Positions 33,374-37,467 of a stretch of DNA of 44,212 nucleotides are shown one piece after another. The stretch lies in sequence record PQ133007. The stretch is one strand, 5' to 3'. The notes below the pieces were generated by a model that was not told the origin of the DNA, did no database searches, and saw only the letters and a program-made list of their open reading frames with translations. The position numbers and the translations under genes are program-made. How positions within the stretch are numbered: the first letter of the stretch is position 1; each line of letters starts with the position of its first letter. The DNA comes from Escherichia phage Henu5_1.

Positions 33374-33594
33374 TTCAATTCCTCAATCAAATTTGCACGA
33401 ACACTACGGGCGGAAAACGTGTCACACACAAGATGACAGCGGGCAGTCATTACAAGCCAGCCAGTAAGGTCCATGCCCAGGAGGTGTTCCGGACGTGACA
33501 CACGACGCACTTTGTTCTCCCTCGGGTTGATTTGGTAGCGTTTAACAATTTCGTCCACGACGCGCATACTGCGGTCAACGATTAAGATATTCAC
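33370..33594 (-). CDS. Hypothetical protein
   Basis: 74 aa; GTG start with GGAGA RBS; overlaps both neighbours. Confidence 0.45.
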   Translation of the reverse strand: MNILIVDRSMRVVDEIVKRYQINPRENKVRRVSRPEHLLGMDLTGWLVMTARCHLVCDTFSARSVRANLIEELK

Positions 33595-34060
33595 GTAGTT
33601 CTCCTTCGCTCATTATTTCAATTTGTGCGCTGCCGATGGGCGGCGCTTCGTCAAAGACTATCAATTGCTGGCACTTGTTATTGCTCGGCCCGACTTCGCC
33701 GGTTACAGCATGTATAAATCGGATCCGCCAGTCCAGAAGAATTATCAGGTTTGCAGTCTTCCGGGCCAGCTTCGCCCACTTCGTCGACGTGTCCTGATTC
33801 AGTAGCATGACGGTCCGGCGTCCGTGCGCTGCGCACTCGACCCACGGCAGCGGATCGGAATACGGCGGGTTGCACCACTTCCACCCTTTCAACTCTGACC
33901 AGTCCACCTCAAGCGCGCTGTGCTCTGCCGTGAAGTAACGCGGTAGCAGATGGTTGGCGTCGCTTGCCGCCATATCGTAACGGAATCGGTACTTACGGCG
34001 CAGCGGTTTAAATAAAGCTGGCGGCGTGCGCCAGCTATCTTTTTGCTCACTCTTCTGCAT
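33575..34060 (-). CDS. DNA N6-adenine methyltransferase (phage Dam-type)
   Basis: 161 aa with NPPY catalytic motif (CNPPYS) and upstream DMAASD segment. Confidence 0.65.
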   Translation of the reverse strand: MQKSEQKDSWRTPPALFKPLRRKYRFRYDMAASDANHLLPRYFTAEHSALEVDWSELKGWKWCNPPYSDPLPWVECAAHGRRTVMLLNQDTSTKWAKLARKTANLIILLDWRIRFIHAVTGEVGPSNNKCQQLIVFDEAPPIGSAQIEIMSEGELREYLNR

Positions 34061-34511
34061 GATCTGGATCTATCGCGTACAGGGCGATTTTATTGCCGGT
34101 CTTGAGAATGCGTTGCACGCGCTTTGTCTCCTCGACACTAAGCGGGCGCGCGTCCGGGTAGAAGCTGCCGTTTGTAGGGTTGCGCCACGCCATGAGCACA
34201 AGGTCTTTCCGGGCGATCGAAGACTGGCGACCCTTCAGACGCGCGTGCTCCTCCGCACGTTTGCAATGCTCACGCAAACCATCGGCAGTGATGCGGTTTA
34301 GTGCAACGCTGGTGGTGTATCCGGTGCGCTGCATAATACCCATCAATTCGAAAAGCAGTTCGAAGCGCTCCTCTAACTCCTGGCGCACTTTCTTCTCCCC
34401 TTCATATAGCGACTGGTTGGCGGACGCCAACGCGTTCGCACGTTTGGCCTGATCGCGGGCTTCGAGGCATTGCGCGGCCCAGTAATTTTTCTCTTCTTGT
34501 AAAATTTTCAT
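34047..34511 (-). CDS. Hypothetical protein
   Basis: ATG 34511 with GGAGA RBS inside track ORF 34047-34559; charged helical sequence. Confidence 0.55.
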   Translation of the reverse strand: MKILQEEKNYWAAQCLEARDQAKRANALASANQSLYEGEKKVRQELEERFELLFELMGIMQRTGYTTSVALNRITADGLREHCKRAEEHARLKGRQSSIARKDLVLMAWRNPTNGSFYPDARPLSVEETKRVQRILKTGNKIALYAIDPDHAEE

Positions 34512-34530
34512 CGTGTTGTCTCCAGGTATT

Positions 34531-34556
34531 AAAAAGGGCGTCCAACCGGACACCCT
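34531..34556 (-). terminator. Terminator-like hairpin on minus strand
   Basis: Minus-strand RNA AGGGUGUCC-GGUU-GGACGCCCU followed by UUUUU. Confidence 0.4.
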
Positions 34557-34557
34557 C

Positions 34558-34586
34558 AATATAATGCAACCAATCTAGTTATGCAA
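34558..34586 (-). promoter_or_regulatory. Putative promoter (TTGCAT-17-TATATT) built on two ATTGGTTGCAT motifs
   Basis: -35 inside motif at 34581-34592; second motif 34564-34574 overlaps spacer and -10. Confidence 0.5.
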
Positions 34587-34590
34587 CCAA

Positions 34591-34914
34591 TTACGCATAA
34601 AAATTTGGGTCGCGCGCTACGTCTACCAGATACAGGTTACTAATGCGGTTGCCGTAGTGGCCTGGTGTGCGCTGACGGCACACTACGGCATAGCCTGGAG
34701 GGATTGTATTGCCAGTCTCAATAATCCACGCCACGCGTGCGCCAGACAGCGTCTTGCCGTTGCATTCGATACGAGTACCGCCATCGGCAGTATTGAGGTT
34801 GCCAATCTTGCAGCCGGTTGACTTCAGGCGGATAACGCCGGTCTTGCTGTCGTAGGAAAAAAGCTGATTGGTCATTGCCACTGAAAAGTCGATGGCGTCG
34901 AATGTAGTATTCAT
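34591..34914 (-). CDS. HNH homing-endonuclease-like protein (NUMOD4/HNH_3-like, possibly degenerate)
   Basis: N-terminal FSYDSKTG..IRLK motif and GNRISNLYLV resembling the DNR..NL element; catalytic His not obvious. Confidence 0.4.
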   Translation of the reverse strand: MNTTFDAIDFSVAMTNQLFSYDSKTGVIRLKSTGCKIGNLNTADGGTRIECNGKTLSGARVAWIIETGNTIPPGYAVVCRQRTPGHYGNRISNLYLVDVARDPNFYA

Positions 34915-35606
34915 TTTAAATTTTCCTCGTTAACCGCTATCGCGAAGCCGCGCGGGGTGAGTGAGCGGATTAATTTTGTACGAGCGGATTTACCACCGAG
35001 GCGACTATACTGTTTCGAGTACCCTTTTTCAACGAAAACAGGTTTCTTCTCTGGCATACGGAAGCCGTTGCCGGTCCATAAGCAGGTCAGCTTCGGATAT
35101 GAATCGCGGGCGTTGATGTATTCCGGGAAGAGCGGGTGTACGTCATCCTCCGGCAGATATCCGCCATACTCCCACGGGTCAAACGAGTGGTCCGGCTTAC
35201 GCCATTGAGTTGATAGCACGCTGCGCGGATTCTCAATCATATACGGCACTTCAAAGAAATCACCCAGGTAAGCGGCGATCTTCGCGGTGCGCACTGCCTT
35301 AAGCTGGAAGGCAGGGTCGCGGGCGCGCTTGCGCGGGAAAGCTGGCGCACCGCTCACCGCCAGATCCGTACACGGCGGGAATGCGTAAATGATATCCGGC
35401 GTGCCGAAATCGCCATTCATCGCACGGTCCACGAAGTCCAGATCGATAAACTCATTACGATAGCGGATCCCGCGACCATAAATCCTGTAGTCCAGGTACG
35501 ACCCGTGATCGGCTTCGGAGTAGTTGAAGCAATAACACTTATGCCCCATCTCGGCAGCACGCTCAATCATCAAGCCGCTGCCGTCAAATAATGACCAGAT
35601 AATCAT
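34911..35606 (-). CDS. DNA cytosine-C5 methyltransferase-like protein (short)
   Basis: FDGSG (motif I-like), AFPPCTDLAVSG (motif IV PC-like), ENP (motif VI ENV-like); 231 aa, shorter than typical Dcm. Confidence 0.55.
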   Translation of the reverse strand: MIIWSLFDGSGLMIERAAEMGHKCYCFNYSEADHGSYLDYRIYGRGIRYRNEFIDLDFVDRAMNGDFGTPDIIYAFPPCTDLAVSGAPAFPRKRARDPAFQLKAVRTAKIAAYLGDFFEVPYMIENPRSVLSTQWRKPDHSFDPWEYGGYLPEDDVHPLFPEYINARDSYPKLTCLWTGNGFRMPEKKPVFVEKGYSKQYSRLGGKSARTKLIRSLTPRGFAIAVNEENLK

Positions 35607-37027
35607 TTGCGCGCCTTTTTAGCTTTCATGTATTCCATTAAATCGTCCTGAATATCTCGCTTACTGTCGCGGCGCTCTGCGACCAGTTCATCAAGTGTGC
35701 CGCGCGCCTGGATAATGTAGACGAATACCGGGCGAGGGTGTCCGGCTTGCATCTGGCGAACTGGCCCGATACGCTCCACGATCTGCGCAAAGTGCTCATA
35801 GTTCCAGGTGTCTGAGAAGATGGCAAGGTGGTGTCCCCCATCCTGCAAGTTAAGGCCGTGACCCGCCGATGCCGGGTGCGCAAACATGATGGGGATCTCG
35901 CCCCTGTTCCACGCTTCCATATCCTTATTGCCTTGCTTACCCTTACCCATCGCTACGCCGTGAGGGAATTTCTTCTTAAGACGTGCCAGATCATGCTTGT
36001 ACTGGTACGCGACGAGCAACGGTGCGCCGTTCAACTCCTCCACGATACTTTCTAGCGCGTCCAGTTTAGCGTCGTGAATTTTCACCCATTCGTCGGTGCG
36101 CTCGCCGTCTTCGTCGACTTTATACACGGCCCCGGAAGCAAGCTGAAGGCACTTAATAGTCTTCGACGCAGCGTTCGCCGCCTCCACAGTTCCGCTTTCC
36201 AGTTCGGCAAATAGCTCCGCTTCGAACTGGTCATAAATCTTGCGGGCTTTCTTCGGCAGGTCCACAACAACCGGCGTATAGATTGGCTTGTCACATCCGA
36301 AGTATTCAGCCGCATCAACTGTGAGCGACACGTCGGACAGGCGTTGTTGTATTTCTTTCTCGGAGTTCTTAAGCGGGGCGTGCTGCATAGTGAAGCTGCC
36401 AGGCTTAACGGGCTTGCTAATAAACCAGCGATCCGTGAATGCCTTATAGCTGCTGCCGAGGCGTTCGCCACCATCGACAAACCACGTCTGACCCCACAGG
36501 TCTTTCAGTCCGTTTGGTGCGGGTGTGCCGGTCAGGTTAATCCAGCGCTTGACGTGCTTATGGGCGATCGCCGCCAGTGCGCGGGCGCGCTTACTCCCCT
36601 GCTTGCTTCTATAACCTTTCAGCTTAGTGGATTCATCGGCAACCACGACCGTAAAGGGCCACTCGTCGCCGCAATACTCGACGAGCCACTCAACCACATC
36701 ATAGTTAACACAAACCACGTTGGCGTCGCTCTCAATCGCCGCAATACGGGCCTTCTCGGATCCGGTGCCGTCTACTACCAGCAAGGCGGGGAAGCGCCAT
36801 TTTTCTTGCTCCGGGGGCCATGTACCAGATGCAACGCGCAGCGGGGCCAGCACCAGTACGCGGTCCTCCTGGTTGGACAGGATGCCGGTCTGGAACATTT
36901 TATTCAGCGCCCACATGGTCGCGCCAGTTTTACCCGACCCCATTGTCGCCCAAATATTGCAGCGCTTATGCTTGAGGATGAACGCGGTTATCAACTTCTG
37001 ATATTCGCGACGTCGGAATCTTGCCAT
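35603..37027 (-). CDS. SNF2-family helicase/ATPase
   Basis: Walker A GSGKTG, DEST (DExx) box, C-terminal helicase motif; ATG 37027 inside track ORF 35603-37117. Confidence 0.7.
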   Translation of the reverse strand: MARFRRREYQKLITAFILKHKRCNIWATMGSGKTGATMWALNKMFQTGILSNQEDRVLVLAPLRVASGTWPPEQEKWRFPALLVVDGTGSEKARIAAIESDANVVCVNYDVVEWLVEYCGDEWPFTVVVADESTKLKGYRSKQGSKRARALAAIAHKHVKRWINLTGTPAPNGLKDLWGQTWFVDGGERLGSSYKAFTDRWFISKPVKPGSFTMQHAPLKNSEKEIQQRLSDVSLTVDAAEYFGCDKPIYTPVVVDLPKKARKIYDQFEAELFAELESGTVEAANAASKTIKCLQLASGAVYKVDEDGERTDEWVKIHDAKLDALESIVEELNGAPLLVAYQYKHDLARLKKKFPHGVAMGKGKQGNKDMEAWNRGEIPIMFAHPASAGHGLNLQDGGHHLAIFSDTWNYEHFAQIVERIGPVRQMQAGHPRPVFVYIIQARGTLDELVAERRDSKRDIQDDLMEYMKAKKARK

Positions 37028-37250: not shown

Positions 37251-37293
37251 CGTCATGTCTCCCAAAAATGGCGGGACAAGCCCGCCGTCTTAA

Positions 37294-37467
37294 TTATTTT
37301 TGCTCGGCGCGGTAGCGGCGCTGCCGTTCACGCTCTTTTTTATTTCGGCACGATTTGCACTCGGCCCGATACCCGTCGGGGCTGCGCGCGGTTTTGCCGG
37401 TGTATTTGTGGAACTGGGATAGCGGTTTAACACAACCGCAATTACTACAGCGTTTTTCTTCAACCAT
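37294..37467 (-). CDS. Small zinc-ribbon-like protein
   Basis: 57 aa from ATG 37467 (GAGGA RBS); CxxC...CxxC cysteine pairs. Confidence 0.45.
   Translation of the reverse strand: MVEEKRCSNCGCVKPLSQFHKYTGKTARSPDGYRAECKSCRNKKERERQRRYRAEQK

Follow-up and report, generated by a model that had tools for sequence, protein, structure and literature searches.

Does the pair of DNA methyltransferase genes in the right arm of the Escherichia phage Henu5_1 encode two intact enzymes that modify the phage DNA, or are one or both of them degenerate? The question is raised by positions 33575-35606 of the 44,212-nt stretch of Henu5_1 DNA analyzed here (PQ133007; hereinafter the window, to the whole of which all coordinates refer). 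These positions run from the stop of a 161-amino-acid (aa) open reading frame (ORF) for a Dam-type N6-adenine methyltransferase to the start of a 231-aa ORF for a short Dcm-like C5-cytosine methyltransferase, both on the minus strand, with an HNH-like gene lying between them. A first-pass annotation made from the letters alone had placed an NPPY-bearing Dam-type gene and a short Dcm-like gene within 2 kb of each other, and both are confirmed here at exactly those coordinates. The reading we favor, and hold to be quite probable, is that they form a conserved pair of the genus Dhillonvirus, comprising a complete short Dcm and a minimal Dam that would methylate the phage DNA as a protection against restriction, accompanied by an HNH-like protein that is non-catalytic.

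The short Dcm matches the phrog_757 family, labeled “DNA methyltransferase”, over residues 1-229 (2e-82). It displays motif I (FDGSG, residues 7-11, 35574-35588), motif IV (PPC, residues 77-79, 35370-35378) with the catalytic Cys79, and motif VI (ENP, residues 125-127, 35226-35234) with Glu125, followed by Lys172 (35091-35093) and an R-S-L-T-P-R-G segment (34947-34967) whose resemblance to motif IX is one seen by eye only. In an hhalign alignment with M.HhaI (the reference sequence being identical to PDB 10mh), FDGSG pairs with F-A-G-L-G (F18-G22), Cys79 with Cys81 and Glu125 with Glu119. Among 57 homologues sharing 57-84% identity with the protein, 32 match PF00145 over motifs I-IV (profile positions 4-94; best match 28.5 bits against a cut-off of 22). 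An AlphaFold2 model based on a 57-sequence alignment attained a predicted local distance difference test (pLDDT) score of 91.2 and presents a class-I S-adenosylmethionine (SAM)-dependent methyltransferase fold with the C5-methyltransferases as its closest structural relatives; the best PDB matches recovered with Foldseek are the DNMT3A/3B catalytic domains, and the predicted fold agrees with that of M.HhaI as well. This relationship emerged from the fold comparison alone, as searches of PDB sequences with either the single sequence or a profile returned no match. Comparisons of the C-terminal part or the family profile with M.HhaI and with the 330-aa methyltransferase of the Edwardsiella phage eiAU-183 gave insignificant scores. 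No more than about 50 residues lie beyond the final strand of the core, so that the protein essentially lacks a canonical target-recognition domain (TRD).

The first-pass annotation had regarded 231 aa as unusually short for a C5 enzyme and had raised the possibility that one or both enzymes are degenerate. The family to which the protein belongs gives a different picture. A word-indexed search yielded 2880 homologues, and an exhaustive HMMER scan gave 816 clusters (50% identity). Lengths of 210-260 aa are the rule, with few exceptions, among the full-length members and the 150 top-ranked representatives, which places the window protein squarely within the norm. Of 50,697 phage records, 1511 carry a member of the family, among them Drexlerviridae, Vequintavirinae, Seunavirus, Webervirus, Dhillonvirus and others; it is also encoded by the Campylobacter phages A142, A16a and A134, in genomes of about 140 kb and of 47-50 kb. 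In an alignment of 61 diverse members with 33-55% identity, Cys79, Glu125, Tyr170 and Lys172 are among the invariant residues. The ratio of nonsynonymous to synonymous substitution rates (dN/dS) computed against five other Dhillonviruses is 0.005-0.05 for the short Dcm, in the same range as that of the adjacent helicase (0.013-0.037), and both methyltransferase ORFs are intact in the five compared genomes. The family-typical length, the C5-methyltransferase fold, the conserved catalytic residues and the strong purifying selection agree in pointing to a short Dcm that is intact and not degenerate. Its predicted structure makes it a complete, if compact, representative of a large family of short Dcm enzymes specific to phages, with a Rossmann core most like the catalytic domain of DNMT3.

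The function of this family is illuminated by a relative from a different phage lineage. The BASEL record of the phage KarlJaspers (Bas06, Drexlerviridae) carries a 711-bp homologue annotated as “Dcm-like C5 cytosine methyltransferase”, to which the window Dcm is 54% identical over its full length of 231 aa. In phage K42, which is 95% identical to KarlJaspers, four escapers of the retron Ec86 all had the 711-bp gene disrupted (bioRxiv 10.1101/2023.08.16.553469). In the same study, expression of the K42 Dcm increased 5-methylcytosine (5mC) on the multicopy single-stranded DNA (msDNA) of the retron, as determined by liquid chromatography-mass spectrometry, whereas a C82A/E128A/K175A/K176A mutant did not; mutation of a CCTGG site in the msDNA stem abolished defense, and such a Dcm was encoded by 34 of the 35 Ec86-sensitive phages (bioRxiv 10.1101/2023.08.16.553469). 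Later papers restate that phage Dcm activates the filaments of this retron, also called Eco1. The residues C79, E125 and K172 of the window protein correspond to C82, E128 and K175 of K42. Given this homology to the characterized K42/KarlJaspers enzyme, the window Dcm most likely uses SAM to methylate cytosine at C5 in double-stranded DNA, and its target would probably be sites of the CCWGG type. It should be stressed that the protein is “Dcm-like” by name and by its presumed site, and is not an orthologue of the E. coli Dcm.

The companion adenine methyltransferase matches PF05869 over residues 3-139 at 121.9 bits (E = 2.9e-35; cut-off 28.1) and phrog_111 at 6.1e-55, with the catalytic NPPY at residues 64-67 (33860-33871) and a D-M-A-A-S motif at residues 29-33 (33962-33976), and its dN/dS of 0.09-0.13 indicates purifying selection. 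Its sequence thus points to an intact, minimal N6-adenine methyltransferase of the PF05869 (T1/HP1) type. T1 Dam methylates GATC, and this is presumably also the target of the window enzyme. We also considered whether it could be a non-specific adenine methylase of the Hia5 type; however, Hia5 is a 281-aa protein that its describers align with M1.DpnII and EcoDam, with PF05869 unmentioned, and the part of the BASEL study that deals with Dhillonviruses has them still sensitive to type II restriction; we therefore dropped this candidate. As a separate observation, the record of the phage Ioannina (OQ589852.1; locus L005, 3924-5149) has a second annotated “DNA N-6-adenine-methyltransferase” of 471 nt further downstream.

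The 107-aa HNH-like protein had been described in the first-pass annotation as the single NUMOD4/HNH-like product between the two enzymes, lacking the catalytic His. The HNH-like part of this description holds (phrog_99), as does the lost His, but NUMOD4 (PF07463) gives no match to the protein at E<=0.1, and the ORFs between the methyltransferases are two, namely the HNH-like gene and a 154-aa ORF considered below. The protein reaches only 13.7 bits against HNH_3 (PF13392; cut-off 24.8), residues 60-77 matching profile positions 5-21. As alignment controls we used three HNH_3-AP2 endonucleases of phage T1 (ST63, ST15 and ST8; PF13392 plus PF00847), which score 69-79 bits on PF13392; their catalytic Asp-His dyad aligns with Val78-Cys79 (34678-34683) of the window protein, which nevertheless keeps the GNRxSNL segment (34633-34653). 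Among phage records, the protein occurs in 157 of Dhillonvirus and 4 of Eiauvirus only, and a search of 5.8 billion proteins returned only 5 clusters, all from Dhillonvirus. The Eiauvirus homologue is 40% identical, has R-C at the position of the dyad, i.e., likewise a Cys for the His, and shows a sub-threshold match to the NUMOD-like region of I-HmuI (E = 0.0019). A PDB profile search with the window protein returned no match, and a single-sequence AlphaFold2 model was unusable (pLDDT 42.7).

The dN/dS of the HNH-like gene is 0.02-0.08, with an outlier of 0.48 for SSL-2009a, whose copy (NC_012223.2; locus L001, 4818-5153) encodes 111 aa and differs in its C-terminus from residue ~72, probably because that record contains a frameshift or sequencing error. 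As it remains strongly conserved despite the lost active site, the protein appears to have been repurposed rather than to be decaying; as both the catalytic dyad and the AP2 domain are gone, it does not qualify as a homing nuclease. Judged by its sequence, it is best seen as a domesticated, non-catalytic HNH_3 derivative, neither homing nuclease nor pseudogene, whose retained role is probably DNA-binding. The labels “HNH endonuclease” and “homing endonuclease” on this gene are thus probably wrong as statements of function. With Cys for His in both genera, the strong purifying selection and a start codon overlapping the Dcm stop, one may further propose that it assists the methylation and replication module as a DNA-binding or regulatory factor, for example steering or restraining the TRD-less Dcm or masking it from retron Eco1, but we regard this proposal as improbable.

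If the two enzymes are active, how might they serve the phage? Dam and Dcm would be produced early, at the same time as the helicase and polymerase, and the two would keep the rapidly replicating phage DNA fully methylated in hosts whose own Dam and Dcm are lacking or limiting; full methylation would in turn shield the sites from cognate type II restriction, e.g., by EcoRII-like and MboI/DpnII-like enzymes. The work on retron-Sen2 describes endogenous Dam as rate-limiting for high-copy DNA and regards phage Dam as an anti-restriction function. Double methylation as an anti-restriction strategy, which the first-pass annotation had suggested, is plausible as a hypothesis. It had also proposed counting GATC and CCWGG sites, and we compared their occurrences in the whole window with expectations under a maximal-order Markov model. 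GATC occurs 182 times against 207 expected (z=-2.4), CCAGG 70 times against 78 (z=-1.3) and CCTGG 76 times against 79 (z=-0.5). By contrast, GGCC, AAGCTT, GGCGCC, GGGCCC, CAGCTG, GCCGGC, CGGCCG, AGGCCT and TCCGGA have z of -4.2 to -6.3 (observed/expected: GGCC 168/242, AAGCTT 1/15, GGCGCC 1/20, GGGCCC 0/13, CGGCCG 0/11, CAGCTG 2/13.5). This avoidance of palindromes is a classic signature of restriction avoidance. The lack of depletion of GATC and CCWGG fits their protection by methylation, be it by the host or the phage, though the counts are not decisive; they also suggest that protection by the C5 enzyme does not extend to every kind of C-containing site.

Several points weigh against an active, protective pair, and they lend themselves to other explanations of the locus. 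One is that one or both methyltransferases are inactive relics. The window Dcm itself lies below detection by Pfam, with no PF00145 match at E<=0.1, and an NCBIfam search likewise returned no match for it; in the alignment to C5 motifs I-X that had been proposed as a check, I, IV and VI are found but the canonical motifs VIII (QxRxR) and X (GN) are not identified; and the position of Lys176 in K42 is occupied by Leu173. The Dam enzyme scores 85.5 bits, below the TIGR01712 equivalog cut-off of 97.05, and is thus placed as a family member rather than at the equivalog level. Moreover, in the phage Opt212 (Escherichia phage vB_EcoD_Opt212, NC_073055.1) a natural in-frame deletion of ~165 codons has removed motifs I-VI of the Dcm, leaving a 66-aa remnant (locus L009, 2507-2707) that corresponds to residues 166-231 of the window protein and keeps both overlapping junctions; as the deletion is natural and viable, the Dcm is dispensable in Dhillonvirus. 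One might speculate that this deletion was an escape from a Dcm-sensing defense such as retron Eco1. Set against these points, the intact ORFs and low dN/dS of both enzymes, the family-typical length, the Cys and Glu that are invariant in all 61 members and the experimentally active homologue leave us giving very little credence to decay.

More serious, although still unlikely in our view, is the possibility that the enzymes are active but serve mainly elsewhere, in marking DNA for replication or packaging, controlling mismatch repair, regulating genes or modifying host DNA. The genes lie within a replication operon and are translationally coupled to the helicase, the stop of which overlaps the Dcm start as ATGA, and the K42 Dcm, which is active alone from a plasmid, was reported to be toxic to E. 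coli when expressed (bioRxiv 10.1101/2023.08.16.553469). In the comparison with Queuovirinae made in the BASEL study, Dhillonviruses proved sensitive to restriction systems of types I and II, and the same study could not tie restriction resistance in Drexlerviridae to methyltransferase genes in any simple way; the literature searched yielded no methylome or restriction-digest data on Dhillonvirus virion DNA, and msDNA mutagenesis in one preprint is the source of the CCWGG specificity assigned to the short Dcm family. In addition, a benefit against restriction would be host-dependent: E. coli K-12 strains, the customary hosts, are themselves Dam+ Dcm+ and hence methylate both GATC and CCWGG. 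On the other side, these two sites escape the strong palindrome avoidance, the pattern expected for protected sites; the systems discussed in BASEL (types I, II and III, with EcoKI and EcoRI named) are not shown, in the part of that study concerned, to target GATC or CCWGG; and the loss in Opt212 implies that Dcm is not essential for replication or packaging. A further and more improbable alternative is that the TRD-less Dcm requires a targeting partner or has a non-CCWGG specificity, with the dead HNH-like protein as a DNA-binding or regulatory subunit. It draws on the near absence of a TRD from the Dcm core, on the ATGA by which the Dcm stop and the HNH-like start overlap, on the strong purifying selection acting on the HNH-like gene without an active site, and on the Cys-bearing homologue of Eiauvirus, which sits between the helicase and the methyltransferases. 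However, the short Dcm occurs in more than 1300 non-Dhillonvirus phage records in which the HNH-like protein was not detected, none of the neighbors of the KarlJaspers Dcm is annotated as HNH, and the K42 Dcm needed no partner; the C5-methyltransferase next to the HNH-like gene of eiAU-183 is an unrelated protein, and the identity of the helicase (70%) and Dam (46%) between the two genera indicates that the gene order was inherited by common ancestry. On this evidence, the notion of the HNH-like protein as a missing TRD subunit of Dcm is unsupported, and we retain a protective pair of complete enzymes as the preferred reading.

The locus belongs to the arm of the Dhillonvirus genome that is devoted to replication and DNA metabolism and is conserved in the genus. 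A 4.2-kb query around it is matched by 160 phage records at 80-95% nucleotide identity, 149 of which cover at least 80% of the query; these are almost all Escherichia and Shigella phages of the genus Dhillonvirus (HK578-like), including HK1, B2, SSL-2009a, Sodalis phage SO-1 and the BASEL phages, and they have the gene order of the locus in common. Henu5_1, which is 92-94% identical to about 160 GenBank phages, is accordingly a Dhillonvirus coliphage; where the BASEL study gives genome sizes for the genus, they are 43-46 kb, against 44.2 kb for the window. The Acinetobacter phage NJ01 and a Campylobacter phage sit among these near-identical Dhillonviruses with implausible host labels, as the Campylobacter phages A142, A16a and A134 do among the carriers of the short Dcm, and all such records are probably mislabeled or contaminant isolates. 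The right arm, transcribed from the minus strand, encodes a DUF2800/PD-(D/E)XK nuclease, a single-stranded DNA-binding protein of the Enc34 type, a DNA polymerase of family A and a VRR-NUC protein; next come an SNF2 helicase and the methyltransferase locus, the helicase lying upstream of Dcm in one operon. The features are collected below.

Features of the methyltransferase locus of Henu5_1 (coordinates of the window)
Feature	Coordinates	Strand	Support
SNF2-family DNA helicase, 474 aa from ATG at 37027	35603..37027	-	Pfam SNF2-rel_dom 3.8e-11
Short Dcm-family C5-cytosine DNA methyltransferase, 231 aa	34911..35606	-	phrog_757, motifs, predicted fold
HNH_3-derived protein, 107 aa	34591..34914	-	phrog_99 1.4e-16
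Intrinsic-terminator-like hairpin and U5	34531..34555	-	RNA fold -17.7 kcal/mol
Conserved 154-aa ORF, ATG at 34511	34047..34511	-	phrog_10530 2e-91
PF05869 Dam-family N6-adenine DNA methyltransferase, 161 aa	33575..34060	-	Pfam 2.9e-35
Conserved hypothetical ORF, 74 aa	33370..33594	-	phrog_10685 1.4e-46; annotated in SSL-2009a, WF5505, KarlBarth
HAD-superfamily phosphatase-like protein, 156 aa	32903..33373	-	Acid_phosphat_B 3.6e-05, below cut-off; phrog_415 1.9e-36

The length of the helicase is identical in the annotation of SSL-2009a. Overlapping junctions are also seen around Dam, the end of the 154-aa ORF overlapping the Dam start by 14 nt and the 3' end of Dam overlapping the 74-aa ORF by 20 nt. 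The phosphatase-like protein belongs to a PHROGs family labeled “polynucleotide kinase”, and in the Ioannina record a longer “acid phosphatase” ORF spans the position of both the 74-aa ORF and the phosphatase gene. SSL-2009a, Envy and Opt212 have an additional 243-nt ORF that is absent from the window. In SSL-2009a and Envy, a 57-aa CxxC...CxxC protein (37294-37467 of the window, minus strand), whose gene is followed by a clean terminator-like hairpin (37270-37286, minus strand), goes under the name “Lar-like restriction alleviation protein”; this label is without domain support, the protein having no Pfam match. No RNA genes emerged from Rfam and tRNA scans covering the whole window.

The HNH-like gene is separated from the 154-aa ORF by a hairpin (34536-34555, minus strand) of the form GGGUGUCC-GGUU-GGACGCCC followed by U5, for which none of 200 shuffled sequences was equally stable (z=-5.3). 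A consensus terminator scan did not report this element (34531-34555); the record of phage WF5505 marks a terminator at the equivalent place. The 79-nt gap between the two genes also contains a direct repeat, TTGGTTGCAT, present twice with starts 17 nt apart and upstream of the hairpin. Given its terminator-like form and its position, the hairpin may split the two methyltransferase genes into separate or attenuated transcription units. The adjacent 154-aa ORF, whose phrog_10530 alignment begins at residue 17 of a TTG-initiated 170-aa ORF, evolves faster than its neighbors (dN/dS 0.21-0.30). It is called a “DNA ligase” in PHROGs and in several GenBank records, whereas the annotation of phage Envy reads “Possible DNA ligase but no evidence”; a ligase domain is absent in Pfam and NCBIfam searches, and this label too probably misstates the function.

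The gene pair as such has already been annotated: the BASEL phage KarlBarth has a “Dcm-like C5 cytosine methyltransferase”, a “putative homing endonuclease” and a “Dam-like N6-adenine methyltransferase”, and the like is true of many other records. With a characterized member of the short Dcm family at hand and PF05869 long known, the finding is real but ordinary. What this analysis adds is that the Dcm is complete and conforms to its family, that the HNH-like protein is dead yet constrained, that the “DNA ligase” label is unsupported and that a terminator-like hairpin lies between the methyltransferases. These points have little importance beyond correct annotation, in which it would be a mistake to set the short Dcm aside as a truncated gene. 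Nevertheless, methyltransferases of this kind come at a cost, as retrons sense them: the short phage Dcm triggers Ec86 (Eco1), and overexpressed Dam triggers retron-Sen2. By analogy with K42, the short Dcm marks Henu5_1 as a probable trigger of Ec86, which the retron papers give as native to E. coli BL21, and this is relevant to the choice of host and to the design of phage therapy. The genome-wide specificity of this very common minimal C5-methyltransferase family also presents an easily testable question.

Comparison with known systems places each component of the locus in context. The K42/KarlJaspers Dcm resembles the window Dcm in belonging to the phrog_757 family, in its length (236 aa vs. 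231 aa) and in a predicted fold that likewise matched the DNMT3A/B catalytic domain; it differs in its phage lineage and gene neighborhood, and in that 5mC formation and retron triggering are known for K42, while for the Dhillonvirus protein they are attributed by homology. Relative to the classic PF00145 enzymes M.HhaI, M.HaeIII and E. coli Dcm, the window protein is ~100-240 residues shorter and is without a recognizable TRD. T1 Dam (M.EcoT1Dam; 237 aa), which scores 1.7e-70 on PF05869, shares 30% identity with the window Dam across the core, its NPPY and DAAAS aligning with the NPPY and DMAAS of the latter, whereas its ~50-aa N-terminal extension, an internal insertion and its C-terminal tail are missing from the 161-aa enzyme. 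The T1 HNH_3-AP2 endonucleases have in common with the HNH-like protein an N-terminal hairpin region, the layout of the HNH_3 core and the R-V-A-W, I-P-x-G and N-R-I-x-N-L motifs. The window protein departs from them in its V-C for D-H and in the absence of both the downstream Asn-rich segment and the AP2 DNA-binding domain, and its gene is a fixed core gene of the genus rather than a sporadic mobile element. The closest parallel to the module as a whole is that of the Eiauvirus eiAU-183 (NC_023555.1; locus L003, 852-4382), with protein identities of 70% for the helicase, 40% for the HNH-like protein and 46% for the PF05869 Dam. There, the 154-aa ORF is absent and the short Dcm is replaced by an unrelated 330-aa PF00145 protein encoded after, not before, the HNH-like gene, which suggests that the C5-methyltransferase slot has been swapped within a module of common ancestry.

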